The notes below the pieces were generated by a model. That model was not told the origin of the DNA and ran no database searches. It was given only the letters and a program-made list of their open reading frames with translations. This document shows positions 1,517-57,160 of a stretch of DNA of 64,000 bases, in pieces. The stretch is taken from the NCBI GenBank assembly GCA_977862235.1, contig OZ374558.1:1-64000 (forward strand). The letters run 5' to 3'. This stretch comes from Dudresnaya verticillata (Eukaryota). The first letter of the stretch is position 1. Every line of letters starts with the position of its first letter. A program made the translations under genes and the position numbers.

Positions 1517-1790
1517 GTACGGTGCTCTCCAGTCGAATGCCGTCCCAGCTCCACATACTCTACACCCTCAAACCAGAGAGCACTGTAATTATACGGTCCT
1601 ATCCGCTCCAACGCGTTCCCAACTCTACATACTCTACACTCTTCAACCGGATAGCACCGTAATTATACGGTGCTATCCGATCCAACACCGCCCTAGCTCT
1701 ACATACTCTACACTCCTCCACCGGATAGCACCGTAATTATACGGTGCTATCCGCTCCAACGCCGCCCCCGCTCTACGCACTGCACCCTCC
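1517..1790. repeat. Subtelomeric 74-bp tandem repeat (~3.7 units), each containing the 32-bp palindrome CGGATAGCACCGTA-ATTA-TACGGTGCTATCCG
   Basis: TACGGT right arms start at 1518, 1592, 1666 and 1740 (period 74). Copies at 1648-1679 and 1722-1753 have perfect 14-bp inverted arms. Confidence 0.95.
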
Positions 1791-2440
1791 TAGGCTCTTC
1801 TTCACTTCAAGACGCTTCTACAACAGTTCAAGATACAACGGAAGTCATCTTAAGTTTACAAGGGCTTCCGGTTCACCCGTACGCTAATCTCGAGGACGTG
1901 GAGACATGGCAACCAGCAACCCTCGTAAATTTACGGTGGCTTCCGGACTAGCCCGATCTTCATCTACAAAAATACATTCAGGTAAGCTTCCGACTCTCTC
2001 CCCGCTAACACACGCATTCAACGATAATTCTCGAGCGATTGCGTTGCGCATATTACTGACATATTCTCGCACACAGTCCGCTTCTCTACACGATATTCAC
2101 GTCCCTTTCACTAGCAGTAAATTTCTCCCACGCCTTGACCTGCATTACTGCGATGTTGTTTCCTGATTTATTCTGAGCTCAACTATACTTCCATTGCTTA
2201 CCAATCTCCACACCGCATGCACTACAAATCAAACACTTCCACAGCATACCGAGAGAACTCAAGAATTCCTGGGCACCAACCAGGCTTGTCCAACACAAGC
2301 TCCTCACAGAAAGCCTTCAAACTTGAGCATCTCCTGAAACGTCGCATCCCACGATGCGCAAGCAGTTCCGTGCGCCTCTCCTCGTGGCTCCAAAAAGCCA
2401 TCGCTAGCTGTACGGGTCTGAAGAACGGGCAAGGTTCCGA

Positions 2441-5400
2441 CTACCCATACTCGTTCTGTCCTCGCCTCGGACTGCCGCTCCCTACATGGAGCTTCTTCGA
2501 ACCAATCGTTCGAATCGAGCACTCCGAACAACCAGCGCTGAACACACCGCCGCGTGCCTTCCAAGGCCGTACAGTGTACTGGGCTGCATCATGCCCCCCG
2601 GACATGCACCGTATACACTGCCGAAAATAGCAGCTACTCGAATGCTGGCTGTTCCGGAAGGCACGGATTGACACCTTGTCACCGGGCCTCGTACGACCAA
2701 AGCAACGCGGGCACACACCAGCCAGCTTGACGGCAAGATCCCGCAGTTCTTCAACTGCTTCGCCTGCTCCACTCGCCGTACGAACTGCAGCCACCGCGCT
2801 ATCCTCCGGGGTGCACTGCACAGTTTCTTCCGTCTGTCTCTGTCTCCCTGTATTTGCCGTTTGCTCGGTTATTCCACCACCAACCTCATGCAAACTCCTT
2901 GCTGGACGTAAGGACGGGCTCTGCTGTGAAGAACCGGTGTCATCAGATGACGACTCGTCCAATTCGTCATTTTTCGGCGATTCCGCTGCTTCCACTACCG
3001 GAGAAAACCTAGCGCAGTAATCACAACACCGAATGTAAGATTCCGTCCTCTCCCACACACGTTGTCTGCAATCCGAAGGCTCCTCAGGGCATCCCAAATA
3101 CTGCTCAAGTTCCTTGACACGACACTTTCTCGTGTCCTCGGCCCACCGTTGAAACCGTTTCAAGGCGATCAGTGACTCCGTGTCCTTCACGTTGGCGCGG
3201 TCAGCATACTCATGATGGTACAGTACACTAACGCTCCCTGGTTTCCCATCCCGACCAACACGCCCACCCACTTGATACAGCTCCATTAGCGATCGGCTGC
3301 TCCCAACAATTATGGTCTGAGCCACGTCGGGGGCATCGATACCTGTACCAAATCCTTCCGTGGCCACCATTACACACACGGAGCGCTGTGCTGCCCCGTT
3401 TCGGCCCCATTCGGCCACACTGTTCCGCCGTGCTTCAACACTCATTCCACTGTGATACTTACATATTATAATATGCGCTGTTCCCGAGAACATTCTGCTC
3501 CGCTCGAGAAGTTCATGAGCTTGATCAGCCTCGCCCTTCGTAAGCACACACACGAGAACTTTGCCGCCACCACGCACAATAAACGCTTCACTCACTGCAT
3601 GGGTGACAGCGTGTCTGATACAGTGCCCCACTTCCTCGTCAGTCGTTTTCGAAAGCCGCTCCACGGTATACATTATGTTGTCCCGACGGAGGCTGCCACG
3701 AATCACCTTCGTATTCCCGACCACGGCTCCGTTACCAGCTATTATACGGTTCTCCAAATGTGGCGGTGCAGTGGCCGTCATCATAATGATCGGTACCTGG
3801 ACACCATCCGGCCTTGCGTGCCGCATGCGTAACATACAGTTGCGATAGTGGGCACTCAGAACAACGATGTGAGCCTCATCAACAACAACACGCATCAACT
3901 TCCCTTCTCCGTACAGTTTCCTCAGCACCGAATTATACTTTCGACAGGACACGATCTCAGGAGACGCAAGGATTATACCTCTCGGCATCAAGCGCTTCTC
4001 AACCTCGTTGTTGTCCAAGTCTTCAATATCGACAACGGGCAGCCTGATATCATCACATCGCAACTTGGTCTCCTCCCGTAGTGATCGAAGGGGGCATATA
4101 AAAATAGTCACTCCTTGTTCACTTGAAGCGGGCCCAGAAACAACCGCGGTTTTCCCACCTCCTGTCCTCAGCACGATTAATGCGTCACTCTCTTTGCGCA
4201 ATACAAGTTCCATTGCCAGCTTCTGTTCTTCGCTTTTGGACTCGGCATCACGGTCCCCTACAGCGTGCGCAAGGCATTCCTGTACACGCCGTGCAATTGA
4301 AGCCTCACGCTCTGCTTTGCGAGCTTCGACTGTACGGTTATCCTTATCAGAGCGGCGACGTGCTGCATCTGACATGAGTTCATCACCCAATCCTATAATA
4401 TTATCGCTTTCCCTCTTCTCGGTGTGCCGCTTTTCGTCCTCGTAAACCTTCTTTCTCTGCTCCGATTCCGAGATTGTCGCCAAACACTTCCTTAATAGAT
4501 CAGCCATCTCTTCTCGACTCATCTCAGAAACATCGCACCCATCCAGTCGGAGACCATGCCCATTGCCGTCCAACACCCCGGCGCTCCCACTTTCCGCACC
4601 TTTGCTCTCTTCCCCTTCATTCAACGCCTCCTGTCCTTGAAGCTTCTGCTTGCGTGCACGTGGGAGTACGGCTCCAGCCAGGTATCCCGACATCGCTCTT
4701 TTCACACCCTTTCCGCCACCTCCAGTTCCCAATCTGGGACCACTGGGTCCATCAGCGCTCTCTACATCCCTTCCTTGCTCCTGCGACTCTCTTTCCTCTC
4801 CGATTCCCTTTTCTGGAGGCGGCCATACTTCTACGGCGTCTTCAACTTCGCTTGCTTGTCCCGCCGAATCACAATGTTTAGAAATCGGAAGGCACCGTAA
4901 TCCTACGGTGCCATCCGGTTCGGAGGTTTGTCTGGGAACATCCACGGCCGGACCGCACCGTAATCCTACGGCGCTCTCCGGTTTGGAGGCTTGCCTTGAA
5001 AAATCCACAGGCGAACAGCACCGTAACCCTCCGGTACTCTCCGGCTCTGATGCATCTCTCGGAACAGCTGAATTTTCCGGAAGCGGCCGTAAAATTACGG
5101 CGCTCTCCGGTTTCGACACGCTTCCTGTCCCGCTTCCGCTAGAGAAGAGTCTGCGTTTGACACCCGAAACGGCTCGCGCCTGCACAACCCGACTCAATCG
5201 GGAACGCCCTTCTCCTTCTTCATCGCCACCCTGGAGTTTGTTCCAATCAAAGTTCTTGTCCAAGCCGCAATCTGCGAGCCAGCAGTCAGATACTTGCTTG
5301 AGCTGCTTCATGTTCCGATCATCTACCTCACCGCCACCGGCAATGTTCGGTGCGCAAGCTCCATACAGAGTTCTCGCGATATGCACAGAGTGTGCTCCCT

Positions 5401-7906
5401 GCACCTGCATCACACTTCCAAGGTCTCTACTATTCAGCGCAGCAGCATCCGAATCTCCCTTGTTGAAACCATTCAATATCTTCACGACGTAACGGAACTT
5501 CTCGTCCGTATTGGCCTTGTCGGTCGCATATCCACCAAACCACTGTCGATGTTTCTCCGCCCCATATTCTTCAGGCAGACCAAAACTCTTCCACATGTTC
5601 CCCGCGAGCTGCAGGCACCCCGATCGTGCACTAGCCGTTGGCATGAGATAGTCCATTGCCCCATCTTCGTCGACCGCGGCCGCACGCCCTGACTCCCTGT
5701 TACTGACAAGTCGGGACAACGCTAGCCTGAACTCCATCCCAACGAGAATCGCCAATTTGACCAGGTTGCTCGTAACGACATCAGGATGCTTGCTAATGAC
5801 ACGCATTCTCCCCCTCTTCATGTTCCTTGTCTTGTCGTAACTTGGAATTACAGCAACTCGGGGGCCACCCGGGAGTTGAATCCCACGTGGTCCGCTGACC
5901 GTATTTCTCACGGCCAAGAACCCAAGCTCCGGACCGCGACAGACATTACCACCCGCCAGATGCAAACAGGCTACCATGAGTACATGGAACTTCCTTAGTT
6001 TCGATAGCATCGCCCTTGCGCGTTTCTCGAATGCTCGTTCGTCTAATGAATCCATCTTTCTCACCGCAGAATCGACGAGATCGCGGCATTCTCTGACAAT
6101 CTCAGCATTCCGCTCATCTTCCATGAATCCATACGGAATGTCTTCTTTCCTGGTGTCGTCTACCATATTCGAGAGGCGTTTCTGAAAGTCCTTTGGCAGT
6201 TCTACCCCGCAGAGAATACCAGTTGGGTCGAACATTAGGGTCACCGCCTCCTTTTGCATCTTCTTCACACAAATACCAATTTCATCAGGGCTCATGTGAA
6301 GCCCCTCCACGTACCCGCAGCACTTGCCCACGTGCTCAGGATCGTCACATGGAAGCCATGTGTTCCTGGAGTACTCTTCATTCCGAAACCGTCGAGCCTG
6401 CAAGCAAAGGGACTGGAGAAAATGTATCCCTAAACTCCCACCGGCTTGATGCCTCAACTCCACCCTGGCCAACTCCTCATCACAAGTACCCTCCTTCTCA
6501 ACGCTACATATGTCGATGAAAGCGCAGCAAGAACTCGCATAGGCGAGTGCAGCAAGAAATGGAGACAGATCCCGGCCCTCAGAAAATGTAACCCCCCCTC
6601 CCGCACGCTTCACACAAAGACAGGTTGTTAGGACGTGAGCAGCACAGAAGTGGCTGCCTTCATCCACGCTCACCCTTTCATACAACAAAGCTCTCAGCAA
6701 AGCGTGCATCGCCACTATACTTTCGGACGGTCCCGTCGGACAGCGCCGTATTTTTACGGCGCCTTCCGGTTCTTCCTGAGTCTCTTCACGATACACCTCC
6801 ATCACCTTCTCACAGGCAGAGCGTAATTCTTCACTGGCGATGAGCTCCTCACCTTCCCGAGACGCATTAATCATGCGTAGAAGTGCTAACGCTCCACGAG
6901 ACACGAAGGAGGCATACCTCTTCTCGGACTGCCTCTCTACCCAGGCAAACTCGACCTTTTGGCTCCCCGTCGCACCAGGAGGTGCTCGAACAGCGAACAT
7001 TACCCTGGACATCGTCATATTGGGCCTCTGTGAGCAGCAACGGCCATGCTGGAATACGGAAAGAACGGCTTCTGTCAGCCACTTCTTCAGCTCGACTTCA
7101 TCTTGGTCAAAAACCTTCTCTCCGCGGCAGGCATCTCCGCTCAACCTGGAAGCCTCCTCCATGCTGAGATGCAGCTGCTCGAGCTTCAAATCTGGCCTCG
7201 TGCAACTTGCAAAACGACCCATTCTCCTCACGTCCTTCTCTTCCGGCTCTTCTACCTTCATCCTTCCTTTCCTGGCCTCGCTCAATTCCTGCAATAGAAG
7301 CTGGACATGAGATGAACCTTCCCCGCTTGCCCGGGCTTCTCCATTCCCGGTACACTCCGCTGCTCCGCCATCCTTTAGTAGAAACGGATTTCCTGTGCCA
7401 GTTCCCTTAAACAGCTTCTGGCACTTTACACCTCCGAGGCCCTTGATCTCCGCAAGACTTATGGACTTTCCAGAAGAGTTATGTTCGGCGTCATAATGTT
7501 TCTTCAACGATGGAGAAGACAAAGACAAGAACGAACATTGAGGGCAAGGAATGCACTCCATAACTCTTAAAAATGGAATCCTGCGCACGGCTCTTCGAGA
7601 AGAGCTTCGAACTGAGCTCCCAATGTACACATGGTAATCCTCTTCAGAAGCCGTGCGCACACAGGCCCTCTTGACGGTATCCCACGACTTGTACACTTCC
7701 TTCGATTCGATGCGGGTGACCCGTTTCCACGGCTGACACTTCTGCAAATGCCTGAAGAGATTGTCCTGTCCTTGCACACCGAAGAATACGGCATGCTGGC
7801 ATACGACGCACAGAAGCTCCGCGACCTCCGGAATAAGACGTAAGCCATATTCCTCGAGCTTCAACTCCGACTCCTGGACCCCATCACCTCCGTTAAGACC
7901 GTTCAT
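2441..7906 (-). CDS. Telomere-linked RecQ-family helicase (TLH-like), 1821 aa, with N-terminal Zn fingers, central tyrosine-recombinase-like domain and C-terminal Cys-rich Zn motifs
   Basis: SF2/RecQ motifs: LRTGGGKT (I), VVVDEAH (II), MTAT (III), YHSGM, VATEGFGTGID (V), QVGGRVGRDG (VI) and an RQC-like CR...C...CCDYC. N-terminus has CxxC..H motifs (LCVVCQH, CPQC..KKHYDAEH). The central GGNVCRGPEL..RNT / SYDKT / KHRQW / QGAHS..RTLY pattern resembles the N-terminal region of fungal TLHs. Transcribed toward the telomere. Confidence 0.9.
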   Translation of the reverse strand: MNGLNGGDGVQESELKLEEYGLRLIPEVAELLCVVCQHAVFFGVQGQDNLFRHLQKCQPWKRVTRIESKEVYKSWDTVKRACVRTASEEDYHVYIGSSVRSSSRRAVRRIPFLRVMECIPCPQCSFLSLSSPSLKKHYDAEHNSSGKSISLAEIKGLGGVKCQKLFKGTGTGNPFLLKDGGAAECTGNGEARASGEGSSHVQLLLQELSEARKGRMKVEEPEEKDVRRMGRFASCTRPDLKLEQLHLSMEEASRLSGDACRGEKVFDQDEVELKKWLTEAVLSVFQHGRCCSQRPNMTMSRVMFAVRAPPGATGSQKVEFAWVERQSEKRYASFVSRGALALLRMINASREGEELIASEELRSACEKVMEVYREETQEEPEGAVKIRRCPTGPSESIVAMHALLRALLYERVSVDEGSHFCAAHVLTTCLCVKRAGGGVTFSEGRDLSPFLAALAYASSCCAFIDICSVEKEGTCDEELARVELRHQAGGSLGIHFLQSLCLQARRFRNEEYSRNTWLPCDDPEHVGKCCGYVEGLHMSPDEIGICVKKMQKEAVTLMFDPTGILCGVELPKDFQKRLSNMVDDTRKEDIPYGFMEDERNAEIVRECRDLVDSAVRKMDSLDERAFEKRARAMLSKLRKFHVLMVACLHLAGGNVCRGPELGFLAVRNTVSGPRGIQLPGGPRVAVIPSYDKTRNMKRGRMRVISKHPDVVTSNLVKLAILVGMEFRLALSRLVSNRESGRAAAVDEDGAMDYLMPTASARSGCLQLAGNMWKSFGLPEEYGAEKHRQWFGGYATDKANTDEKFRYVVKILNGFNKGDSDAAALNSRDLGSVMQVQGAHSVHIARTLYGACAPNIAGGGEVDDRNMKQLKQVSDCWLADCGLDKNFDWNKLQGGDEEGEGRSRLSRVVQARAVSGVKRRLFSSGSGTGSVSKPESAVILRPLPENSAVPRDASEPESTGGLRCCSPVDFSRQASKPESAVGLRCGPAVDVPRQTSEPDGTVGLRCLPISKHCDSAGQASEVEDAVEVWPPPEKGIGEERESQEQGRDVESADGPSGPRLGTGGGGKGVKRAMSGYLAGAVLPRARKQKLQGQEALNEGEESKGAESGSAGVLDGNGHGLRLDGCDVSEMSREEMADLLRKCLATISESEQRKKVYEDEKRHTEKRESDNIIGLGDELMSDAARRRSDKDNRTVEARKAEREASIARRVQECLAHAVGDRDAESKSEEQKLAMELVLRKESDALIVLRTGGGKTAVVSGPASSEQGVTIFICPLRSLREETKLRCDDIRLPVVDIEDLDNNEVEKRLMPRGIILASPEIVSCRKYNSVLRKLYGEGKLMRVVVDEAHIVVLSAHYRNCMLRMRHARPDGVQVPIIMMTATAPPHLENRIIAGNGAVVGNTKVIRGSLRRDNIMYTVERLSKTTDEEVGHCIRHAVTHAVSEAFIVRGGGKVLVCVLTKGEADQAHELLERSRMFSGTAHIIICKYHSGMSVEARRNSVAEWGRNGAAQRSVCVMVATEGFGTGIDAPDVAQTIIVGSSRSLMELYQVGGRVGRDGKPGSVSVLYHHEYADRANVKDTESLIALKRFQRWAEDTRKCRVKELEQYLGCPEEPSDCRQRVWERTESYIRCCDYCARFSPVVEAAESPKNDELDESSSDDTGSSQQSPSLRPARSLHEVGGGITEQTANTGRQRQTEETVQCTPEDSAVAAVRTASGAGEAVEELRDLAVKLAGVCPRCFGRTRPGDKVSIRAFRNSQHSSSCYFRQCIRCMSGGHDAAQYTVRPWKARGGVFSAGCSECSIRTIGSKKLHVGSGSPRRGQNEYG
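4886..5109. repeat. Four in-frame 63-66 bp repeats inside the helicase CDS, each built on the 32-bp palindrome
   Basis: Palindromes at 4886-4917, 4949-4980, 5012-5043 and 5078-5109 encode the peptides PDGTVGLRC, PESAVGLRC, PESTGGLRC and PESAVILRP. Confidence 0.85.
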
Positions 7907-8001
7907 TCCGCGCAGAGCTCCGCAATTGCACTACTTTCGATCTGAAACAAGTGGAACATGGGAATTTCAAGTCAGTATACAATAATTTCTAAACGGCAAA
8001 C

Positions 8002-8176
8002 CGGACAGCACCGTAATATTACGGTGTTATCCGATTCACAGTCGCTTTCGTTTTTGCTGTCCGATAAGCTTCCGATTCGGATGCCACCGTAACTTCACAC
8101 TGCGACTGTCAATCGGATAGCACCGTAATATTACGGTGCTGTCCGACTTGGAAACGACCGTATACGGCCGTTCCCG
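8002..8176. promoter_or_regulatory. Palindrome cluster just upstream of the helicase start: 44-bp inverted repeat (8002-8045 / 8102-8145), half-site at ~8078, further palindrome at 8151-8176
   Basis: CGGACAGCACCGTAATATTACGGTGTTATCCGATTCACAGTCGC is the near-exact reverse complement of 8102-8145. It lies ~100 bp from the ATG at 7906. The regulatory role is inferred. Confidence 0.55.
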
Positions 8177-8298
8177 TTGACACCGCCACTCGAATCACTC
8201 CGAACAATTGTGTAAGCGGTACCAAAAGAAATTTGCAATTACATACCGTTAATTGAAACCGAAGAGAAGTAATTAACTCAATTGCTTCGCCGCGGTGG

Positions 8299-8316
8299 GT
8301 CGTCGTCGTCGTCGTT

Positions 8317-8366
<50 letters not shown>

Positions 8367-8378
8367 CGTCGTCGTCGC
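8299..8378. repeat. (CGT/CGC)n trinucleotide microsatellite
   Basis: Direct inspection. Confidence 0.95.
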
Positions 8379-9017
8379 CCTCGTGGATCCTTCAGAGGCA
8401 ACGCTGAATCGCCTGTCGCCTGCAGAAGTCTACGTGTTAGCGCGCTTCTTGTAGAGAGAGAATTGTCGGAGACCGTCGCAAGACGTTGCCGTAGTCCGGT
8501 TCGCAATCGCGCACGCCACACTCAACTTTCCTCGGAGTGCGCAATGGGTGAGGGGAGGGGGCGGGTGATCGGTGGAACTGCGTCACTTCGAGTAGATATT
8601 GGAACGGTCATCTGGCCTTATTGGCGGGAATACTGTTTCGGTTCTGTCGGCGTTGATGATGTGTATTCCGTAACGGCTCCTCTCGTCAGATCTGAGATCC
8701 AAAGCTGTTTATTCTCACGAGACATTGCACCGTTCCCCTTGTAACGCCGACCGCGTCGAAGCTCCGGACATTGCACCGTTCTCCTTGCAACGCCGACGGC
8801 GTCGATGCTCCGGATTGACGAACAGAATGCTCACGGATCCGATCCGTGATCCAAAGCCGGATCTGATCTTGACTGTCTTCAGAGCCGTTTGGCATTGTGA
8901 AAGCCGTTGTAGTTCTACAACGGAAGCCGCCGGGAAGGACCGTATTTATACGGCGCCATCCGGACTTTACCTGCTAACGACTCATCCTTCCATCCAGAGC
9001 CGGGTTATTTTAGTATT

Positions 9018-9235
9018 GGTCCCCTTTCCCATTCATCGGTCCCCTTTCCTTTTCCATCGGTCCCCTTTCCTTTTCCATCGGTCCCCTTTCCTTTTCCATC
9101 GGTCCCCTTTCCTTTTCCATCGGTCCCCTTTCCTTTTCCATCAGTCCCCTTTCCCATTCTATCGGTCCCCTTTCCCATTCTATCGGTCCCCTTTCCCATT
9201 CTATCCGTTCTCTTTCCCATTCTATCCGTCCCCCT
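9018..9235. repeat. 21-bp pyrimidine-rich minisatellite (GGTCCCCTTTCCTTTTCCATC-like, ~10 units)
   Basis: Direct tandem units; a related shorter array (ATTCCATTGGGCCCTTTCCY) lies at ~9530-9605. Confidence 0.9.
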
Positions 9236-9918
9236 CCCTACTCCTTCGCACCGGCCACTTTCCCATACATTCGGTTCCCTTTCGCACCGTATCCCGTTCG
9301 GTTCGATCCCGCTGCTCGCGCACCTTTCCATATACTGCAGCATCTCATCTAGCGAGGTATTTGGTCTCTTCACTCGTTTGTTTACACACTATGGCTTTTT
9401 GAATAGCGTGCTGGTACTCCAACCGTTCCCGGAATCCGGCGGATGGCACTGTACTTCTACGGTGCCATCCGGACTCCACCTGCTGACGACTCACCTTCTA
9501 TCCCTTTAACCTGATTCTTTTAGCCTTGTTCCCCTTTCACATTCCATTGGGCCCTTTCCTATTCCATTGGGCCCTTTCCCATTCCATTGGGCCCTTTCCT
9601 ATTCCTTATCTCCCGTCCCTTTCCTGTTCCGCTAACCCCTTTCCTACTCAATTTAATCTCTTTACTTGCATGCTCTATACTTAGATCCTGACACCAACCT
9701 CTGACAGGAAGGTCGAACAGGCTTTTCCATCGTCGCCATTCTCCTCGTCTCTGGCATTCCAATAAACCGGAATTTCAGTTATATCAGGGGCTTTACTTTC
9801 CTATTCCATCCGGGAATCTATTTAGGACTATTCATATATTCCTTGCCCGCTATGTCGCGGCACTATCCATGTTGGTGAGGTTTTGTCTATTCAACATGGT
9901 TTTGTTAATCCTGGAAGG

Positions 9919-10413
9919 ATGGCAGATGCCCTAAACCAGCAGCAATCATCATTCTGGAACGAGCAGTGCCAGCCCGATGAACTCCATGGCTTTATGAGCA
10001 TATACGGAAGAGCTGTACGAGGAGGCCTTGAATTTAGCGACCAGCTTGTGCGCTTTTGCAGCTCTCGGTCTTCGACTGAGGGCGAAGCCACGAGTACATC
10101 TACCACATCAGAGGAAAGAAGTTCCTTCGAACACGAACCAAGCCCGGAAACATCGACAAGCCAAAGCAGCTACAGTTCTTCTAGGTCTGGAACCGCAACG
10201 CAAAATGTTCACAACGGAGCGATACCTCCTCCACCACTTGACGATATTCCTGACCCTCGCGATCCACTCGATTTGGACATTCCCGATGAATTGTGCCTGG
10301 AGTTTGAAAGGATCTATGAGAGAGTAAGCTTCACCTTCAACTATGTAGAAAGAGCGCTGGAAAGGATGACTTGGGATGAGTCCGGCCCAACGCTCGTGCT
10401 ACATCACCAGTAG
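9919..10413 (+). CDS. Hypothetical Ser/Thr-rich protein (~164 aa)
   Basis: Open frame from ATG 9919 (MADALNQQQ...) with a plausible composition but no recognisable domain. Confidence 0.3.
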   Translation: MADALNQQQSSFWNEQCQPDELHGFMSIYGRAVRGGLEFSDQLVRFCSSRSSTEGEATSTSTTSEERSSFEHEPSPETSTSQSSYSSSRSGTATQNVHNGAIPPPPLDDIPDPRDPLDLDIPDELCLEFERIYERVSFTFNYVERALERMTWDESGPTLVLHHQ

Positions 10414-11479
10414 AATAGTAAACTACTTGTTAGTACTTCTGTTGAACAACTTCCCGTCAGCTCCGACAGCTCTCTGTCTTAGTCTCCTGATCCTGTTACC
10501 GCGACGGGGCGTCGCTAGTACTGTATATAGCCAGATTTCCGCTCATGTCCCATTCCCCTCTCCACTCCGACCCGTAGATACGCGCCAGCGGGCGTCGAGT
10601 TTTTCCCATCCCGACGCATCTCGATCGTGACCCCTACCGTCTCGATTTGTTCATTGATGATCCGACTTTTGCTTCATGTCCACAGGCGTTCGACTTTTCC
10701 ATCATAAGTCCGTCCTCATTCTCATTCAAGCTCGTCTGGTGTTGTTTCTGGGCAGGCCCTTGCCGCTCGCGAGTGTGCTAAGGGCCGTCACTATCATGAT
10801 ATTTGCCCTGTTCATGGCATCACCCTTCATCCGTTAGTAGTGAATATCTACCGGTAGATCTACGGTCGAGTTGGAATCAGATTTCATTCTGGACTGCAAA
10901 CACTTGCGGGCTTCTTCACGGGCAAGAAGGGCTCGAATCCGCTTGTTGAGAAGAATTCTCTCCTAACTCGTCTAGTTTTGGTTGTGCTCCAACATGTAGC
11001 CCTTACTGTGAACCGTCAGTTCCGTCTCAGCACCCCAGTCCTTCGTCGTAGTCTCGTCTCCTGATGGGACCCCCTGGTATGCCTTGGTTAAAGTGATGCT
11101 TCCCCCCCAGTGTCAAAGCCCCCGCCGTGTCATTACTGGTGGCTTTTCGGAACTATTCTATTGCTTTGAAAGCCTACCAGTAGCATTTCAGAACGGTACC
11201 TAAGACCCCAATTGTGACCAATGAAAACACGTCTCGATGCAACACGCACTCTCCTACACACATGTACGAACATGCAAAACAGTAAAGAGGGACTCAATAT
11301 CTGTTGATCCACAACGAATCTTTCCCTAGGAAGCGCATGTTTCCTGAGGAAAGGTTGGTAGTACAATTCTAGTCACCCCGTTCTATTACATATATGTCAT
11401 TCGATGGGGATGGTAGCTGTGGCGTCACATAGCCCTATTTCCTCTAGCAAAAGTGGTTTGGCTAATTTCTTGATGATCA

Positions 11480-12346
11480 CGTCACATGATCATAACATAA
11501 CATCACACAAGCCTTTGATGATATAGAACCTGAATTAACGTATATCGAAACCAATGGCATTAGTGATACGGTCGTTTTCAACATACCTCTGTCGTATATG
11601 GTTTCCGTTGGAATTCCAGATGCGTTGTTCAGGCTTGGTGTATTTGTGCTGGGAAAATCTGTTCTTGCCGAACAGGTTGCTAATATCGCCAAGGCGTTTG
11701 GTATGCTTTCTCTAAAGCGTTCAAGGAATTGGACGGAAATGTGTCCAAAGATGTATGGGAGTCGACAAGTACATGCGTACGGGCTGGATTTAAGTTGATG
11801 TCGACATGCACGAAACGTATGATAGCGGGGGACAGCGTTGAGACTGCAGCATCAGTTTCTAGAAAAGCCGTCGGCAAGGGCGTTAAAGAAGCTGTTAAGA
11901 AACTGACAATGTCTCTACTGAAGCATCCGGTGGCTGGTATTGTCATATTGGGAGCAATAGCTACCATAAACATGCTCATAGTGCATGAATCGAACCTCGA
12001 CATTGAGCTGGACTTTCCGTACATTTGGAACGGGGATACAGCCCATCTTCCGAGCGATACGATTAAAGGCAGAACCGTTGGGGACCGTACAGATGAGTGG
12101 AGCACGGAGTCTTCTTACCACGCAATGGCATTTCAGGTCACGGGCAATTCTCGTATCTATGGTATTGAATACACAATGAGACATAAACTCAAGAACAGCA
12201 ACGTGGTAGTAGATACGGTTTCAGGCCTATTCTGTATTCCGGTAAATGGAAGAACTCTCTCCACGCAACTTTTGATAATATTGGAAGCGCTGCAGACGGT
12301 TACGAAACCTACCTTGTTTGTGATTCGCGATAATCCGGCATCGTAG
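11480..12346 (+). pseudogene. Frameshifted gene remnant of unknown family (amphipathic/hydrophobic helices followed by a beta-rich C-terminus)
   Basis: Two overlapping protein-like frames (11598-11798 and 11729-12346), with in-frame stops upstream. Confidence 0.3.
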
Positions 12347-13287
12347 TTATCGGGGAGACTGTAACTAGACTAGTCGTGAAGTAGTCTAACCCTGCCGTTT
12401 TGACTGTTGTAGTAATCAGACCGGAGCAGCTGAACCGAGTTAGTAGTGAAGTTGGCGGTGCCTCGTTTAAGATTCACAAGCATCTTTCCTTCAGTCACTC
12501 AATTAGACTAGATGGATAGCGAAACATATCATCGGAAATGCGATAGAAGGCACCTAAACGTTAGAAATACCCCAATTCGAACAATCTTTATCTTTGAACA
12601 AGTCGCACCGCCTTCGGCGGGGGCGGCGCTGCGCGCCGCTAGACCGCGCCTTCGGCGCGGGACGGCACTGAGTGCTGGTATGATACGGTGTAACTTGGGT
12701 CGCGCGCGCACAAAAGTAAAGGACCAAATTAAGAAATCAGGCGCACAGCAAAGGTGTCGGCTGTAAGGAGCACCATCCCGCCAATCAATGGTGAGCTTTG
12801 CTGCTGCTGCTGCTGCTGCTGATTTTTTTCATTGGCGCTGCGGCCGTGTATTTTAGATATAATTTCGGATTCGTAGAAACTATTGTGGCGCCAAGTGGAT
12901 TTGTTGGCGCATCGATATAGAATTTTGTTTATTTTTCGAGACGTGGCCGGGCTAATACTACCCCTTGGGCGGTCATACCCCTACAAATTCTTACAATAAG
13001 GTAAACAAGGGAAGAGATCGGCGGCGCTGCGCGCCGCGATGTGCTGTCTCTGACGTTCTGGTGTTGGATTATACTGCTGAGTTAAAGGTAGGATTGTGTG
13101 TCGGAAGCAGAAGTGAAAAGTCTTGAGAGATATTTTCAAGACGATTTAATGCAGAAAAGAGACTTGAGGGCCTTGAAGAGGCTGCTAGAAAAATCAAGGC
13201 CTTTAAGAGGCCGCTAGAAAAATTCAAGACCTTTAAGAGGCCGTTGAAAAAAATGACAAAGAGTAAAAGCAGCAAAACCACTTAATG

Positions 13288-13860
13288 TCAGTGACGTTGT
13301 TCCACAAACGTGACTGCTTCAGGTAGAAAAGGATTTCCGACCACTACTGGCATGTTGTGGAAGGGGTGGTCGGTGCTGGATGGGTGGTCTTCTTCGTTGT
13401 GCAGGAGAAGGACGTCATTCGATTTCTTAACGCGAGACAGGGCGACATAGAGCTGACCCGAAGAGAAGAAGTTGGATCGCAAGTCCACGATCATCTTGCG
13501 CAATGTTTGGCCTTGTGCCTTGTGCACTGTAGCACTAAATTCTAGACGAAGCGGAAACTGCCTGCGGGTAACTCGAACGCCGTGGAAGTCAAACTGGAAG
13601 TCGATACGGTGTAGCGCATAAGTTTCCACTTCCTCCCTATCCCCGCTTTCGTTTAGCTTGGCCACGTAAACCATTCTTCTACTATAGCGCTTGACGACGA
13701 ACATTGCACCGTTAACAATGTGCGGGTGTAGAACATTCCGTATTACCATTACCGGGACACCCAACTTCAGTTTCAATTCGTGCGGAGGAACCCCAGTCGG
13801 CATGTAGCGGTACGTCATCTCGGGGCAGCGACGACGGGAATCAAGCAGGATCTGTACCCG
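13288..13860 (-). mobile_element. Helitron Rep/Hel fragment (C-terminal PIF1-like helicase)
   Basis: Motifs [42 protein letters not shown] and [13 protein letters not shown] are typical of Helitron helicase C-termini. GC-rich hairpins (GCGGCGCTGCGCGCCGC, CGCGCCTTCGGCGCG) lie downstream at ~12605-12665. Confidence 0.85.
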
Positions 13861-14049
13861 TTTCGAAGGGGTCTGCTCTCGCCACAACTCAGCTTACCTG
13901 CCCCGGGCTTCCACACGTGCTTGCGCGCTCGCGTAGAGGGAGCGGGGGAGGAGTCGTGCGAGAGCGTTCCCCGCCGCCGCTCATATGGCCCCGTAGTTTG
14001 CGCTTTACACGGCCTCAGGGAGATCACGGCGAGCTCACTTCGGATGAGC

Positions 14050-14525
14050 ACTACAGTACCAATTTAATTATGTAAAGTAGCTTTCTAGGCCTCTAGGACA
14101 GGTGCGGTTTTAATCACATAAATTAAGAATGGAGGCGCACGGCGCGACTGTAAGATCGGGTCACTGTAGCGCGGCGGCGCGTCTGTCAATTTACTGTCAG
14201 AAAATCGGAGCGCGCCAATGGGCGCGCGTTGCGGCAAAATGCGGCCAATCGGGTGGCGCAGCTTGGCGGTCAGCCAATGGGGTTGCAGCTTTGCTGCTGC
14301 TGCTGCTGCTGCTGATGCTGCTGCTGCTGCTGCTGCTGAATTTTTCTATTGGGCGTAAAAGGGTGATCTAGAAATAGGTTTGGCGGCAAGGGATGGTAAT
14401 GGCGGGCGGATGTTATTTTTTACAAATTTTTTACGTGTACGAAGCCCTTGAGGGGCCTCCTACACTGACAAATCATTACTATGGGGAGAACAAGGGCAAC
14501 GACGCGGCGCTGCGCGCCGCTATGC
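14050..14525. repeat. Non-coding repeat (Helitron-associated) with (CTG)n tract, duplicated at ~28845-29470
   Basis: GGTTTTAATCACATAAATTAAGAATGGAGGCGCACGGCG occurs at ~14106, ~28856 and ~29032. The CTG tract and GGGATGGTAATGGCGGGCGGATG are shared between the two regions. Confidence 0.75.
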
Positions 14526-14994
14526 GTGTGGTGAAGTAAGCCGTGGCGCGCACGCGGCACGCCGACGGCAAGCCAACCGTAACGGATGATGTGGCAATAC
14601 GCCACGCTGATGATCTGGCAACGTGTAACCGTGTCGGATGTCGTGCGCATTGCTGTACGCCGGTACGCATTGCTGTATAGCAGTGAAGCGCACCAACCAT
14701 ATCGGAGTATTTGTAGTATTTATTCTTTATTTTTAGTGAGTATCTGTACAGTATGTAGAGTAGTGCGCCAGCCAATGAGAATGCTGCGCATGTCCGTGTC
14801 GGAGATTGGGACCAGCAGGGCCGATTCCACCATGGGTCCAGACCATTAGGGTCTGGCCCCCACGGACCGGACCGCTCGGTGCCACCCTGACTTGTATATC
14901 AGGGCGGCACCGCAGCGGCTCCTAAGGTAAACGGGTAAGCAACCTTAGCCCAATCCTTTACGGTTTTCCCCGCGCCGAGCCCGTTGCGGTCTAC

Positions 14995-15681
14995 TGTAGT
15001 AGAATGGCTTTCAAGCCAGAGTAGACGGCCACACAGCACGACAGCTGCCCTGAAAGCGTGATCCCACTCGCGTGGTTGGTAGCTCCAAAAGGGGTGGTAG
15101 AGACTTGAGAGGGCGGTAAGCCCTGCAAAAGGGGGAAAAAGGGAAGGCGAACCGTACTGCTTAGAGCAGTCGTCGTAGGTAGCACGGCTTGTAAACGCCT
15201 AACGGGGATTGTAGCGGTGATACCGTGAGAGTCCAACAAAGGGAAAAAAACCCAAGGCACACACCGCTGCCCATTTAGTGCGGGGCCCCTGCCACTCAGG
15301 GGCCTAATAAAAACGGCGGGAGCCGAAAAGGTACTACCCGCTCAGTTAGAGCTATAATGCTAACAGTGAGCTAATACTGTACTACCCGCTCAGTTAGAGC
15401 TATAATGCTCACAGTGAGCTAATACTGTACACTAACAGTTACACTAGCGATTAAAAATAGGAATGAGCGGTCATACCGCTTCCGTACGTACGGCGCCATT
15501 GTAAGGCGCCACACCCAAAATAGACGTGCCATCATGGCGCGTGTCCACCACTCAGCGCGCATAGCGCTCACGTAGTTAATTGTCCAATGGCGAGCAGCCA
15601 TCTCACTCCTGTATGCCACGCCTTACAGGCGTCGCGTGTACACGTGGGTCCTTACAGCGCCCCAGCGCTCGTTATACCACA
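14995..15681 (-). repeat. Gypsy 3' LTR (contains an internal ~48-bp tandem duplication)
   Basis: TG...CA ends, adjacent PPT at 15682-15694, matches 27736-28431. Confidence 0.93.
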
Positions 15682-16365
15682 CGGCCCCCTTCTTAAAACT
15701 GAGCGACCGCGCTCAGTAAGGAGCTGTACAGCGATGCTGTTTCCAAAGGCTATAGCCGTTTGAGATTGAGATTGAGATCCTGTGGTCCGTTCATTGGCCC
15801 AGCGAGAACGTTTTGCAAACGCCGCCCAGGGGCCCCGTCTCGACGAGGCGCCAGGTCACTGTGTGCACGGCTTGAGCCGTCGGCGTCGTCTCGACCGGTA
15901 TCGATTGCGCGAAACACCAGACGGGCGCACGAATATTTCAACGCTGGCTTGCAGCCATCTTTTCCCTTTCGGTGCCCACACCCACCAACAGCCGTAACCC
16001 TGCAACTGACCGCCCGGTTTGGCTCCTTGCATCCGCCCCGCTTGAGCGAGCTCCTCATCTGCGTTCGCACTGTTGCGCGCCGTCGCCCGGTGTCAAGCCA
16101 TTCGACCTCCGCCGTGCGCGCCCCGCGCTTCCCGGCTGACAGCCGTTTTCTCAGGTCGTGCTCGCCAGTCGTTGGACTTGGCTCTGGAGCCGACGTTCAG
16201 GCAGAAGAACGGCTTCCGCGCCGTAGAAGTAATCAGGTCGCGCTCACTACCCCTCGGGGTCGGTTCTGGAGCCGACGCGAATCAGGAGAAAGGGCTCCGA
16301 ACCTGTAGAAGACTTGATCCGGAAACGACTTCCAAGTCGTTGGCATTCTCGCCGACTATATCGAG

Positions 16366-18659
16366 ATGGCGCCGCCACACTTGGCGTATGGAGCCGCCGG
16401 CTCTAGTGCGAATGTCTTGGGACATGAGGTGGACGCGGCTGGCGTGCCGATAGCGATCTCCCACAGCCGCGACTGGCTTCTGCGTACCGACCTCACACAT
16501 CTGAAGATGCGGGTGGGAGCTAGTCGCGAGGAGGTTCGCCGCATCGGGGGAAGGATGGCTCAAAGCCGTATTTGGAATCGTCTTATGCGCACGCGCGTTG
16601 GCATCTGGACCGGTACCAACCGGTTCCTCCCACGCCTTGATGGCGACGCAGACCCTCTTCAATGGGACCTTGCCTATGTGCGCTTCCGGTATGAGGTTGC
16701 GTGGAGCAATGCGCTGACGCAGAAGTTAACTTCTCAGGCCACCCTTTTGTACGAGATTCACCAGGGTGGCGAGTGGGACCTTCGACTCGTTATGCATGAG
16801 CGTCCACTCATTCGGAAGGGGAGGGATAACTTCCCAACTTCCCATATACAATGGCCCGCGTGGTGCGGTGGGATGAGTCATCCAACTTAAAATACGCCCT
16901 GGATAACCCCCAGACGGCTATGCCGTTAGAGCATTCCCGCTTCGAGCGAAAGCAACGCCACAAGACAGGGTGCCTCATCCCTTGCCATTGCCAAGAGGTG
17001 ACGGCTATCAAGCCGGAGTGGTATAACGGGAATTGTCCGCAGGTACCTGATGACCATAAGGACTTCGAGGTTTCCTACTCAATGCCGGTCGGTACTCCGA
17101 CGATTATCGCGTACCTTGGTCTTGAGATGATGGCGAAAGCCATAGATGACAGCGTGCTCTGGAGCATTTATCGCCATGAGTGGGTCGTTCTCGTCACTCA
17201 GACGCTGGTGTATGAGGCGCGTCGCGGCCTGCTATATTTCATCGGTCAACCATTGCGGGCCGCAATTCGGGCGTTAGGCCTTAAGGACTTAACTGCTGAC
17301 GCAGCCGACGAGAAGGACTTAGAAGCTCTGCTCATCTTCGTCGAGCGTATTCGCTGGAGCGAAGTTACCAAGCGCAACCGACATCTACCAGATAACACTG
17401 GTCAGCTGACGCCGGTTTACAATCGTGGGGATTGGGTCGGTTTTGATCCGCAGAGGTGGCACCCGATGCTGCCGGAATATCTCATTCAGCCGGAGCCATC
17501 CGAGGCGAATCCACTCATCATTGACGAGGGAGCTCGTATGACCGGAATGACGGCCGGTTGGGTTAGTTCCCGTTGGCGTGAACCAGGTCCCGAGACCCCC
17601 GAGCAAGTTCCCGTCTTCGACGAGACTGTTGGTGGACAGCCACAGGGACCTCATGCCCCGCCTGCCATGGGCTATTCGAAAGCCGACCACGTTATTAGAG
17701 ACGTCTTCAATAGGCGTGGTTTAGCCATCCGGCTCGCTTGCCAGTGGGACATGCGTCATCTCAACGTACATAGTCTGGCAGACTGGGTGGAGGAGGTCAT
17801 GGTGGACTATGAGTCCAATTGGTTGCAGATGCCGGGTCCGGCCGACGAGATGGAGCGTTTGAGGGCTCACTTTGCCGCCCTTCCTCCCCTGTCGGGCCGT
17901 TCGCGGGTTGGGGACGTGAAGCCGCGTCGCGGTATTGGCCACGCTGGTACTCCCGGCATCAAGCAAGAGTCGACTGGAGTCGAAGATGGTGATCCTCGTG
18001 CCAATATGAGCGAAAACCCCGCAGCGATTCCGCGTGAGGAGTCGTCCGCCACCGCCGTGCAGACCACAGCTACAGCTGTTAAGTCTGTTACCACGCCTGC
18101 GATGGCAGTCGTCTCAGCTTCCACTGCGATAGCAACAGGCGGGGCTCCGACCCTTGGAGCACCAACTACGGGTTTACCCGGCTTCGCCCCCGTGGGCGAG
18201 TTCCTCGGGGCAGACTTTCCTCGCCGTGGTTCTCAAGCCACAAAGGAAGTGTTGACAGGGGTTGTTGCAGTCGTACCTGGGTCACAGGATAAGGAAACTG
18301 CGGGCTCAAAGCTCGATGTCGATGGCCAGGATGGCGCTTCTCAAGCGAAGAAGGCAGTTCCGTCTTCAGACGACGTAGTCGTTAAGACCGAATTAATCGT
18401 TAAGGAAGAGGATGAGGTGGACCCCGGTATGGGTGAAACCCCGAGAGCCAGCTTCGATGCTATGGAGATCGACGCCATAACGACTCACAGTCGTGTGGGC
18501 GGGCTTGGCGCAGTCACCCAGCGTGGTCGTGCCTCGCGTCCGGTGGGTCGTGGCCGTCGCACGGTGCGTGAAGTTCGCCGCGTCGTTATTTCCCATTCGG
18601 CTCCTCAGCCGGATCCGCCCCTTGGAGAGGATGAGGTCATTGACCTTTTGTCAGAGTGA
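16366..18659 (+). CDS. Antisense extra ORF(s) of the Gypsy element (174 aa + 602 aa overlapping, probably one frameshifted gene), function unknown
   Basis: Long protein-like ORFs 16366-16890 and 16851-18659 lie between pol and the 3' LTR, on the strand opposite to gag-pol. Confidence 0.6.
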
Positions 18660-20025
18660 GTCTCCGATGGCTCTAGCCAATTAGTAATCACCGTTTCCCT
18701 TGTATCCTGTCTGGATGCCTTTGTACTTCGCCTTGCTTGGGCAAGAGCGGCTTAACCGCTAAAGTAAAGCATTGATGTTACTGTATCCCCTTCGGCTGGA
18801 AGCCGATTCGCTCTATATAAGGGCGTCTGTGACTGCGTTCCCTTCATTGGGGGCGTGGTTCGATGGCGAATATTCCAACTTCCATCGGCATCTTGGCGCA
18901 AAAGTGTATATCACTCCTTGGAGGAGTTGGGCATCGCAACTCCTTGCTACTGCCGAGGCATCATGGTGCCATGGCGCACGCGCCGTGGCGTAGAACACCA
19001 AGACGAATTTGATTCGTGGGTCAATCCGCCTCCAACCGCAAGTTGACCAGTCGAGGGGGCTACAGCAATGGTCAACTCCCCTCTACAGTAGAACTCTGTG
19101 ATACTGTAGAGGCGAGCGTTTTTGGCGCCAGTGTGGTTCGCCGTGGGATTGTCTGCCAGACAAATCTTGGTTCGTGGATGGATCGCCCAAAAGAAATCTA
19201 GTTCGCTGATGGTTACTCCTCCCTACCCCTTTAGGGGGTTCGGGGAGCCGTTCGGTGCATGATAACCGAATTCGCTGTAGTACGCCAGCCATTTGACTTC
19301 AGTCAACGGGTAAGGTTTCTCGTAGACCTTCCACTGAGTGGTCGTCCCGCGACCGCGGTATAGGAGATATGTCGATAAAGCCATTGGTGATAGCCATCAC
19401 GAGAAAGCATCCCGCTATACCTAGCGCATATTGTAGTTGTAACTGCTCAGCGTCTAGGTGCTTGCCCAGTCAATTCTGCTGTAGCAACTGTAGTTACTAC
19501 TATAATAGTTTACGCCATCGTCCTCTTGAGGTCCTGAGCCTTACAATCCTCTTCCAGTCTTGCGTTTCCAACTCATCTATCCATTTCTTTCCACTTCCAA
19601 TTCATTTATCCAAATGTTTCCAAACATCTATCCACATCTGGAGCTTCTTCTCATCTATCCAGCTTGAACTTCCAGTCCATCTATTCACATCTGTCCAAGG
19701 TTTCCAATCTTCTTTGCATCTATCCATTTTCTTGAACTTCCAGTTCAGCCGCTCCACATCTATCCGAACATCTATCCAAGGTTTCCAACCTTCTTTGTAT
19801 CTATACCTTTCCAATTTTCAAACGGGGTCAATCCCATTCAGTTAGACTAATATACATAGGCATAGCCATTTCTATCCCGTGGATCGGTTCGGCGATCCGC
19901 AATAGGACGTTATTTTCGTTTTCCTTATAAGGCTTCTGCCTAGCGTAGAGTTACACACGTAAGCGTGCCGCGAGGTAGCACCGACTCATGACGCTTGAGT
20001 TATCATCAGACTGGTCGACCAGTAG

Positions 20026-20828
20026 TTATTCCGAGAGGGGAATCCTCTTCGCACGGTGATACCGTTTGACTAGATTCGCTGGGAGGTGCTCTCGCGGTTC
20101 CCAGGTGTCCTGTGAGGCAGGGCACTGGTACCAGCGCACCTTGTACAGTTTCGACTCGGAGTCGTAGTCGACCAATTTCTCATAAACATGCTCCCGTGGC
20201 GGGGCTTTCTTGAAGCGTGAAAACTTACGACGCGGGGTCGTCCCATCTGCATTAGGGGAGATCAGCTCTCCATGGGCTTGAGGAGAGCTTAGGCCCTGTG
20301 CGACCGTTGGCCCGGCCTCATTCAGGCCAGGCGGTATGATAACCTCATCGCGAGGGGGTACGGTGGTAGAAACCGGGCCAGCGCCATTATCGATATCTTC
20401 GATCACTTCCCGCGGAGGGGAGACAGTCTGCGCATTTGCATGTTCTACGCCCGCTTCCAGCGGCTCCTCTCTTTAATGTTCGGCGATGGTGCGGCGCTTG
20501 GAGCATTGGTGGCTATTGACTCAAGAGTTGGTCCTGCTAGTTCCACATTTCCAGGAGTCGTCTCCACGATGGGTGGGGCTAGCCCTAGAGCTCCAAGCTC
20601 TTCTTCCAGTGATGGGGCCAGAGTGACACGGTCCAGAGAGACTGATTCCCTTTCGCCGTTCCTTTGCAACACGACAGTGTGTGTTCCTCTCTCGAGGATC
20701 TTGTATGGGCCGAGAGCCTTTGGAAACAACTTTCCTTCCCGTGCCACGCCCTTGGCGTCTTTCATTTTCGTCTCTCTCTCGAGGAAGACCCAGTTACCCG
20801 GGCGCAACGTCTGATTAGTCAGACGCAT
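20026..20828 (-). CDS. Integrase C-terminal region and chromodomain (frameshifted from pol)
   Basis: GPY-like KLFPKALGPYKIL, and chromodomain YEKLVDY..LYKVRWYQCPASQDTWEPREHL. Confidence 0.85.
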
Positions 20829-23437: not shown

Positions 23438-23556
23438 TTTGCGGACGCGACGTCTGTCAGACGCAGAGAGGTGTTCCAGAGTCAGGTCGTTGACTGTTAG
23501 GTTTTCGGTAGCGGTTTTAACGCCTGGCTTCGAGTCGGCAACGCCGAGAGCAGCAG

Positions 23557-27115: not shown

Positions 27116-27735
27116 ACCTGGCCCCGGTACTTCTTCTCCAGCCGGGGCGCCCGTCGTTCTTGGCGGACGTCCCGGCTCATCCGTTTCCGGATTTCTTATA
27201 AGGGCGGTTCAAACCGCACGAGTGCGAGCCCCAATCGTCCTTACGGATGCAAGACTGCCAGTTCGGCTAGCTCCACGGCTCGTTATCCCGGGCCGGGTAG
27301 TGTCGCCATTAGATGTCGGCATCTTCTTGGAATTTTCGGGAATTTTCGGCTCTGCCGACGAGGCAACGGGGACTTCTTCCCAGGCTTCTCGACGGTTCGG
27401 AACCGTAGCGTTACACGTGTTTTCTCAGGATGCACGGAAAAACTGTTGAAGTAGCTCAGCCCGGGCGTCAGTCCGACGTTGAAAGGTACTTCTATGGACG
27501 GTTAAAAACCGTCAATGTAGTTTGCTTGCTCACACGAATTGACGTAACTCCGGAGCTTGAAATAAAGCGTAGAAACCGTCGACAATTAGACGACTAGGGT
27601 TTTACCCTTCGAGAGGAAGAATTCTTGAAACTTCAACGGACTAACCGTCCTGTCTTGAGCGTCTTGATTCGACCCTTCGGGGGTAAAGTAGTAAAAGGGT
27701 CAACCCAGAGAACTTGTTCTAGGTCGGGAGACCAC

Positions 27736-43816: not shown

Positions 43817-44082
43817 TTGTGGCGGGCCAAGCGAGCCGTCCTCCGGTGATTCTCCTGTTGGGACAAAAGCCGAACAATAGCGCTGCGGCGGGGACAACAA
43901 GACGGTCGTTGTGCTACAACGTGGAGCTTCGACAGGCCACAAGATGTGTTTGGATGGCTACCTTTTCACCGCGCCGCGCTGCATAAATAGAGCCGTGCGG
44001 TTGGTGTACCCGCTCCCGACACATACCCCAACCATCCCATCTCCAACCGTCTCCACCCGCTCGACCGCCCGCTCCTGCCGAC

Positions 44083-56915: not shown

Positions 56916-57160
56916 AGCCGCCCACGCGGCACCTCGCGGCACCGCGAGAACCTCTCTTCCTACAACCGCCAGAAAGTCGCCTGCTGGACGCTCCGGGACC
57001 GCCACACACGCCGCGCTGCAACGCCTCCCGCCGTCCCACTCGCAACGTTCATCGCGGCATAAATAGCGCCGTGCGCTTGGCGCACTCGCTCCCGACACAC
57101 ACACCCCAACCATCCCATCTCCAACCGTCTCCACCCGCTCGACCGCCCGCTCCTGTCGAC

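Follow-up and report, generated by a model that had tools for sequence, protein, structure and literature searches.

Does a chromosome end of Dudresnaya verticillata encode an enzyme that cuts and recombines that end? The question is raised by a stretch of 64,000 nucleotides (contig OZ374558.1, positions 1 to 64,000 of the forward strand, assembly GCA_977862235.1), here called the window, in which a candidate new system had been proposed: a telomere-terminal element that codes for a tyrosine-recombinase-like/RecQ helicase fusion and carries an array of its putative palindromic target sites. The gene family turned out to be known, as the layout of zinc fingers, middle domain and RecQ-like helicase is the one known from telomere-linked helicase (TLH) genes; the mechanism and the sites are where the novelty lies. 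The terminal TLH-type unit spans 9.7 kb. The reading that we favour, at a probability of about 0.5, is that its protein would bind and cut the palindromes, that core-matched exchange between chromosome ends would follow with the aid of the helicase, and that telomerase would heal aborted cuts. The observation is well supported for sequence and predicted fold; the activity is a proposal.

The telomere, its junction and the gene are laid out as follows (aa, amino acids):

1 to 1516, no strand: telomere array, G-strand mostly TTTAGGGG (155 units) with 26 TTTTAGGGG variants
1514 to 1531, no strand: junction of the telomere with the right arm of a palindrome (1518 to 1531; core 1514 to 1517)
2441 to 7906, minus strand: intact TLH-type gene of 1821 aa, an open reading frame (ORF) without internal stop, 3' end toward the telomere
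7478 to 7816, minus strand: N-terminal zinc region, aa 31 to 143, with a weak OrsD match (E 0.005, under the cut-off)
6347 to 6724, minus strand: helical region, about aa 395 to 520, predicted to superpose on core-binding domains
6296 to 6349, minus strand: C520-H525-C530-(H/E537) cluster, its first three residues kept in 61, 62 and 62 of the 63 closest homologs, respectively
5255 to 6034, minus strand: predicted tyrosine-recombinase catalytic domain, aa 625 to 884, holding R657, K692, R787, H839 and Y848
3245 to 4228, minus strand: RecQ-like superfamily 2 helicase core, aa 1227 to 1554, with motifs I, II, III and VI intact
2519 to 3028, minus strand: C-terminal cysteine clusters, aa 1627 to 1796, with RecQ_Zn_bind and zf-CCHC matches in homologs

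The gene has no introns, and its stop codon lies 925 bp from the telomere array. The long ORF of the original prediction was confirmed, with the five residues at codons 5936-5938 (R657), 5831-5833 (K692), 5546-5548 (R787), 5390-5392 (H839) and 5363-5365 (Y848), and so was its fusion to a RecQ helicase: Pfam matched DEAD at aa 1227-1384 (E 4e-11) and Helicase_C at aa 1444-1554 (E 9e-11), and RECQ5 and BLM were the best solved-structure matches (E about 1e-71) of a profile built from 40 family members. The zinc region contains the motif C-x2-C-x16-H-x3-C followed by C-x2-C-x12-H-x4-H; the latter, starting at C121, matches the published TLH C2H2 pattern, and the former is a variant. The cluster around C520 is likely a metal site, and the C-terminal clusters are likely an RQC zinc site and zinc knuckles. 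The position and size of the middle domain fit the TLH domain, which measures about 250 aa and precedes the helicase; no protein named Tlh1/TLH1 was returned by the homolog search.

A HMMER search with aa 381-900 against 1.84 billion representatives gave 124 relatives with 21-39% identity. DEAD and Helicase_C were found in all 26 of the long relatives that were scanned, and OrsD (E<0.01) in 15 of them; in several homologs the OrsD match clears the cut-off. A search with the domain alignment yielded 53 proteins, mostly from fungi (Suillus, Pisolithus, Boletus, Termitomyces, Hypoxylon, Cladochytrium) and often several per species; the Suillus, Pisolithus, Boletus, Hypoxylon and Cladochytrium proteins share OrsD, DEAD and Helicase_C layouts. 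Using FastTree (139 rows, midpoint root), the protein was placed in a clade of 33 (support 0.99) that holds none of the 44 rows from the fungal search; those group together elsewhere, and the relatives within its own clade are metagenome proteins. By this domain tree, the gene is an intact copy outside the fungal branch of the TLH-type family. One full-length homolog, P0044 (MEM1282557.1), is filed under a Chlamydiota metagenome-assembled genome; its contig is likely of eukaryotic origin and binned with bacteria.

Between the zinc region and the helicase, the Pfam scan of the 1821-aa protein gave no match. Neither did a word-indexed protein search with aa 380-900 or a search limited to proteins of 2980-5000 aa, and when solved structures were searched twice with the sequence of the middle domain, the outcome was no match in one case and one irrelevant match in the other. 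The fold was addressed through AlphaFold2 models, with a mean confidence (pLDDT, predicted local distance difference test) of 83.5 for aa 386-890 (505-aa model) and 79.4 for aa 625-884. The proposed tyrosine-recombinase fold was recovered in a wide structural search with the latter model, in which recombinases and topoisomerases IB take all of ranks 1-25 among 48,161 chains, with XerA at the top (Z 9.1, root-mean-square deviation (rmsd) 3.6, 150 residues aligned). QRICH1 follows at rank 26 and Ndc10 at ranks 29-30, and unrelated helical bundles appear from Z 3.9 down. Topoisomerase IB matches (Z 7.1-8.0) come within about 1-2 units of the recombinases. The 505-aa model aligns rigidly across both domains with XerH (241 residues, Z 8.7), the Tn1549 integrase (232), Cre (229) and IntI (225), at rmsd 4.3-4.9; four of the five full-length topoisomerase IB rows (ranks 6, 11, 17 and 20) align to the C-terminal part only. 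With Foldseek, every listed row to rank 17 for the aa 625-884 model was Cre, Tre, XerD or XerA; the 505-aa model gave a weak result (XerD at rank 2, E 0.27).

Profile comparison points the same way. A hhalign run against 77 phage integrases gave a probability of 84.7%, E 6.7e-6 and a score of 42, with the R, R, H and Y columns in register with the catalytic columns of the integrases; scores in the controls did not exceed 20.2 in 60 block shuffles and reached 14.6 for the reversed profile. Comparison with a single Cre or lambda Int sequence was uninformative (probability <1%). The five residues were expected to be invariant and are nearly so among the 139 sequences that span the domain, a coverage rule having excluded shorter fragments: R657 is retained in 137 of 139, K692 in 139 of 139, R787 in 131 of 138, H839 in 138 of 139 and Y848 in 137 of 139. 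The H of EKHRQW (H786), previously proposed as a catalytic residue, did not survive: among 138 homologs, 127 have Y, W or F in its place, which is R-1, while the integrase His falls at R-3 in the alignment, a position occupied by E784 here. Judged on sequence, the missing His of HxxR lowers the case for a canonical integrase, not for a protein that may work like one. Taken together, the middle domain almost certainly belongs to the tyrosine-recombinase/topoisomerase IB superfamily, and a two-domain recombinase fold is predicted.

The palindrome is 32 bp long and consists of two 14-bp arms around a freely varying 4-bp core. At least 12 copies confined to the first 9.5 kb had been expected; 14 full copies were mapped, all within 1.5-9.5 kb, and the confinement holds throughout the window. 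Twelve copies are found at no more than 7 mismatches and 13 at no more than 9 (28 arm positions), all at 1574-9471, and a more degenerate fourteenth lies at 1839-1870. No palindrome was found in 9601-64000 at up to 10 mismatches, and 50 dinucleotide shuffles gave a mean of 0.08 at up to 9. Two half sites (1518-1531 and 8078-8091) and a coreless variant (8149-8176) add to these. The sites and repeats of the unit, none with a strand, are distributed as follows:

1518 to 1776: 74-bp tandem array of 3.5 units, with palindromes at 1574, 1648 and 1722 that have an identical core
1839 to 1945: two degenerate palindromes (1839 to 1870 and 1914 to 1945), 75 bp apart
4886 to 5109: four palindromes at 4886, 4949, 5012 and 5078 (spacing 63, 63 and 66), all in one reading phase of the coding sequence that links recombinase and helicase
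6737 to 6768: palindrome in coding DNA, aa 380 to 390, directly ahead of the recombinase module
7997 to 8176: upstream of the ATG, palindromes at 8002 and 8114 in a 49-bp inverted repeat (z -11), with the half site at 8078 and the coreless variant at 8149
8299 to 8814: (GTC)n tract (8299 to 8377) and a 46-bp tandem pair (8721 to 8814)
8921 to 9645: duplicated block (8921 to 9134 and 9430 to 9645, 75% identical), each part with tandem repeats of 20-21 bp that come after a palindrome (8931, 9440); probably the inner limit of the unit

Among 28 half sites, the outer CGGA of the arms is conserved at 93-100% and the inner CCGTA at 89-100%, as against 46-61% for the core. Copies with unrelated flanks keep arms and symmetry while the core drifts, and identical cores are confined to neighbours: three beside the telomere, two in the linker and two upstream of the ATG. 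The last pair, at 96 and 208 bp before the ATG, shares one self-complementary core. Five copies lie in coding DNA, in one common phase and in the linkers that flank the recombinase module, and they shun the reading phase in which 9 of the 14 copies would create a stop. Tyrosine-recombinase sites consist of inverted arms of 11-13 bp with a core of 6-8 bp between them, and loxP, dif and the TelN site exemplify recombinase geometry. The 32-mer can be read as 13+6+13, a likeness to such sites in geometry only, with a total length near that of loxP and dif. The site spacings (63, 63, 66, 74, 74 and 75) were not used for an analysis of helical phasing because the copies are tandem duplicates. An origin of the palindromes from a miniature inverted-repeat transposable element or a host repeat is disfavoured, since they share no flanks and none occurs in the other 54 kb. 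Rfam gave no match in 1517-14500, no interstitial telomere repeat was found at the inner boundary of the unit, and neither the exact palindrome pattern nor a related locus was found in the viral contigs or prokaryotic genomes searched.

The telomere begins inside a palindrome, as had been noted: the array joins 1-4 nt into the 4-nt core of a fifteenth site, of which the half site 1518-1531 is left. Within this core (1514-1517), base 1517 alone is certainly non-telomeric. An arbitrary end would fall in a core of 6-8 bp with a chance of 8-11% in the 74-bp array and of 3-4% in the region from telomere to gene. The chromosome end is an ordinary telomerase-type array, 1.5 kb of simple repeats, and not a covalently closed hairpin. 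The string TTTAGGGG is absent from the part available to us of the 2013 eukaryote-wide telomere survey (PMC3622300).

Scanning metagenomes for one conserved motif gave 13 homolog loci (L001-L013), nine of them fungal-like by similarity. Six have dispersed palindrome families of their own, with 15 copies in L005, 14 in its near twin L009, 11 in L012, 9 in L008, 7 in L006 and 2 in L011; the largest family in shuffled sequences (20 per locus) and in 7 control tiles of the window was 1. These families differ from that of the window and mostly from each other, and only L008, L011 and L012 cross-match. Their places recur. L005, L009 and L008 each have one palindrome just ahead of the recombinase module, in a short gap between coding matches that is likely an intron, and L005, L009, L011 and L012 have a palindrome cluster in the recombinase-helicase linker. 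These are the places of 6737 and 4886-5109 in the window, at 16-19% identity for the four loci aligned. By tblastx, the non-genic flanks of the unit showed no similarity to the 13 loci. Two of these loci have further features: the homolog gene of L013 is interrupted by an insertion of 5.4 kb (2657-8076) whose terminal inverted repeats measure 206 bp and are 91% complementary, and L001 carries after its gene a second, diverged partial recombinase region on the same contig (6775-7327; 77-84% identical pieces).

How could such a unit work? It is rather likely that the element's own protein binds the palindromes of the unit. A dimer would sit on the 32-bp site with one protomer per 13-bp arm and would cut across the 6-bp core, Tyr848 nicking each strand; distal segments could then be exchanged or copied between chromosome ends. 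Strand exchange by tyrosine recombinases needs matching cores, as in Cre, Flp and lambda Int, so that differing cores would keep the sites of one unit from deleting each other, and each site would pair with its twin on another end. The exchange may be extended by the helicase through branch migration or break-induced copying, and if a cut were aborted, telomerase could heal the break left in the core, as at 1517. Cleavage is favoured by the two-fold site with its free centre, the core-binding-like domain, the junction in a core and the private palindromes in relatives. More tentative, and somewhat against the odds, is the wider proposal that the TLH units of fungi and of one or more lineages outside the fungi make up a class of autonomous eukaryotic DNA element not described before, in which a recombinase-RecQ polypeptide would act on lineage-specific palindromes with coded cores, recombine ends or make new ends for telomerase, and co-diverge with its site.

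Several points weigh against cleavage and exchange. On the side of the protein, the Foldseek E-values are not significant (best 0.39, aa 625-884 model), noise usually reaches Z 7-8 and the top Z of 9 lies only modestly higher, the 77 integrases of the profile were picked by one motif, Pfam and PHROG scans of 24 members name no integrase or recombinase family, and the pentad without the HxxR His equals those of topoisomerase IB and TelN as much as that of Cre. As to the sites, the strictly free core is 4 bp with invariant flanking A/T, and 14 sites, five of them coding, resemble a binding array more than a single att site. Seven of the 13 relatives (L001, L002, L003, L004, L007, L010 and L013) have no palindrome family even under looser rules; among these, L003 and L004 are 67% identical to L008 in the domain, and L001 and L002 lie nearer to the non-fungal clade than any other locus. 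Of the seven, L002 covers a coding fragment of 2.4 kb, and L013 has an interrupted gene. Telomere repeats occur in none of the 13 homolog contigs, and the junction in the window is one post-hoc case in a kind of sequence that is fragile by itself.

Some of these points suit a protein that only docks. The palindromes could be binding sites at which zinc fingers or a recombinase-fold clamp coats the element's own DNA for autoregulation or subtelomere tethering, with Tyr848 acting elsewhere or as a sequence-independent swivel of the topoisomerase IB kind in concert with the RecQ helicase. Topoisomerase IB shares R-K-R-H-Y and matches the fold at the Z given above, and the structural match list includes MrpR, Ndc10 and QRICH1, which we take to be DNA binders that do not cut. 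The many dispersed copies, 10 of 15 in L005 and 7 of 7 in L006 lying before the first coding match, would also suit docking, as would the two sites just ahead of the ATG and the loci with an intact pentad and no array (L003, L004). We consider docking possible and yet unlikely as the whole explanation, because the core-binding-like domain aligns with dimeric recombinases, two-fold sites with a free centre suit cleavage by a dimer, and the telomere joins within a core. If the palindromes had nothing to do with the enzyme, being host-factor sites or by-products of subtelomeric duplication, the junction would reflect palindrome fragility or erosion; tandem duplication of some copies (74-bp and 63-bp arrays), the relatives without arrays and the single junction are in line with this. 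Such independence is improbable in view of the arms and symmetry kept around a drifting core in copies with unrelated flanks, the absence of copies from the other 54 kb, the lineage-specific palindromes at the same gene positions and the avoidance of the stop-giving phase.

The hairpin-resolvase version of the original prediction fits poorly. A TelN/ResT-like enzyme would turn a palindrome into two hairpin-capped ends, which would later be opened and extended by telomerase. Its pentad likewise lacks the first His, and many 6-bp cores of fungal relatives are self-complementary (9 of 15, 7 of 9 and 8 of 11), so that resolution would fit these relatives better than the copy studied here, where such cores occur in 3 of 14 sites; L006 has none in 7. 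The bases at the junction are compatible with a self-complementary core, though three of the four are also telomeric, and ResT has a RecQ-like 3'-5' unwinding activity according to the part of the source seen (PMC5388405). The telomerase-type array at the end speaks against a resolvase, and so does the ranking of TelK, which is 40th in Foldseek and not among the 50 rows listed of either wide structural search; the TelN profile reached a probability of 0.2%, in a comparison in which the integrase control itself reached 4.6% only. Hairpin resolution thus appears very improbable, and cleavage with core-matched exchange remains the preferred account.

Further inward, the window contains other elements. 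Just inside the unit, two ORFs (9883-10413, 176 aa; 11729-12346, 205 aa) have no meaningful Pfam match and no counterpart in the homolog loci. A PIF1-helicase fragment at 13288-13887 (Pfam Pif1_2B, E 2e-8) is likely a Helitron relic; TLH genes of Botrytis are flanked by Helitron-like elements according to excerpts of one study (bioRxiv 10.1101/2022.03.07.483234), a likeness that may be coincidence. A Gypsy-type long terminal repeat (LTR) retrotransposon occupies 14993-28430. Its LTRs, some 690 bp long, are 96.6% identical; the minus strand carries gag and pol, and the plus strand an additional ORF of 602 aa (16851-18659) without Pfam match. A Copia-type element at 38544-43818 has an intact 1480-aa ORF and 403-bp LTRs that are 99.8% identical, which indicates a very recent insertion. 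A Sel1-repeat/Roc GTPase/TIR gene cluster with varying Sel1 repeat number (30352-34821, 44083-47865, 57071-60868 and a further copy from about 63200) looks like a subtelomeric immune-receptor family; Pfam was run on the first copy and the others were assigned by paralogy.

That fungal chromosome ends carry TLH genes has been known for more than 25 years; in the portions available of a recent account, the TLH domain and the C2H2 and RecQ motifs are defined, the function is called undetermined and the signature domain has no assigned function (bioRxiv 10.1101/2024.02.27.582403). For Fusarium and Botrytis, the accessible texts describe TLH units as present at most ends, as arrays and in a strain-specific manner (bioRxiv 10.1101/2024.02.27.582403; bioRxiv 10.1101/2022.03.07.483234), and the words 'recombinase' and 'palindrom' are absent from the passages available of the second of these studies. 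The literature searched, which left most subscription journals outside its coverage, contained no recombinase reading of TLH genes, no such fusion and no algal TLH. The catalytic module and the candidate target sites of this known family are thus apparently unpublished, and new here are the intact copy from outside the fungal branch, the complete site map and the telomere junction. An intact copy with a predicted recombinase active site and mapped candidate sites makes a direct test possible. If the protein cuts at these sites, TLH-bearing organisms would have a dedicated enzyme for subtelomere homogenisation, end truncation and telomerase-independent survival, and the TLH family would naturally supply site-specific recombinases of eukaryotic origin that differ in their site sequences.

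How does the unit compare with known systems? Recombinase-driven mobility is known from Crypton, DIRS and Starship elements, and AcademH transposons and the yeast Y' elements are mobile or subtelomeric units with a RecQ-like helicase. To our knowledge, none of these combines recombinase and RecQ in one polypeptide that has a palindrome array of its own, and Pfam scans of the protein and its homologs gave no match to these families. Like topoisomerase IB, the protein has the pentad, and it is predicted to have the catalytic fold. Reverse gyrase, which reportedly couples a helicase to a topoisomerase, can be likened to this fusion; unlike it and the RecQ-topoisomerase partnerships, whose partners are of type IA, the present system has two-fold DNA sites and a core-binding-like domain. 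With TelN, TelK and ResT it has in common the predicted fold family, the pentad without the first His, the palindromic sites and the location at a chromosome end, and ResT likewise unwinds DNA in the portion seen of one paper (PMC5388405); it differs from them in its eukaryotic telomerase-type end, in cores that are mostly not self-complementary and in the lack of a detectable profile match, the control comparison being weak too. The unit resembles the TLH loci of fungi and Monosiga, as far as the excerpts describe them, in its telomere-adjacent gene with the 3' end outward, its C2H2 motifs, a domain ahead of the RecQ helicase and private repeats on both sides (bioRxiv 10.1101/2024.02.27.582403; PMC1635262), and a 23-bp imperfect palindrome is mentioned for HAR-D of the Magnaporthe helicase-associated repeats in the part seen (PMC1635262). 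In the same excerpts, these accounts neither assign a function to the TLH domain nor read it as a recombinase. Unlike fungal TLH genes, this copy falls in a clade without named fungi, carries an extra Cys-His-Cys cluster, is intronless and has 14 dispersed palindromes in and around the gene. With XerA, XerH, XerD, Cre and the phage and transposon integrases it shares the predicted two-domain fold, R-K-R-H-Y, an H-to-Y spacing of 9 and sites that are two-fold, free at the centre and about 30 bp long; it departs from them by the absent HxxR His, a longer insert between R and H, the fusion to zinc fingers and a helicase, and many sites with different cores.

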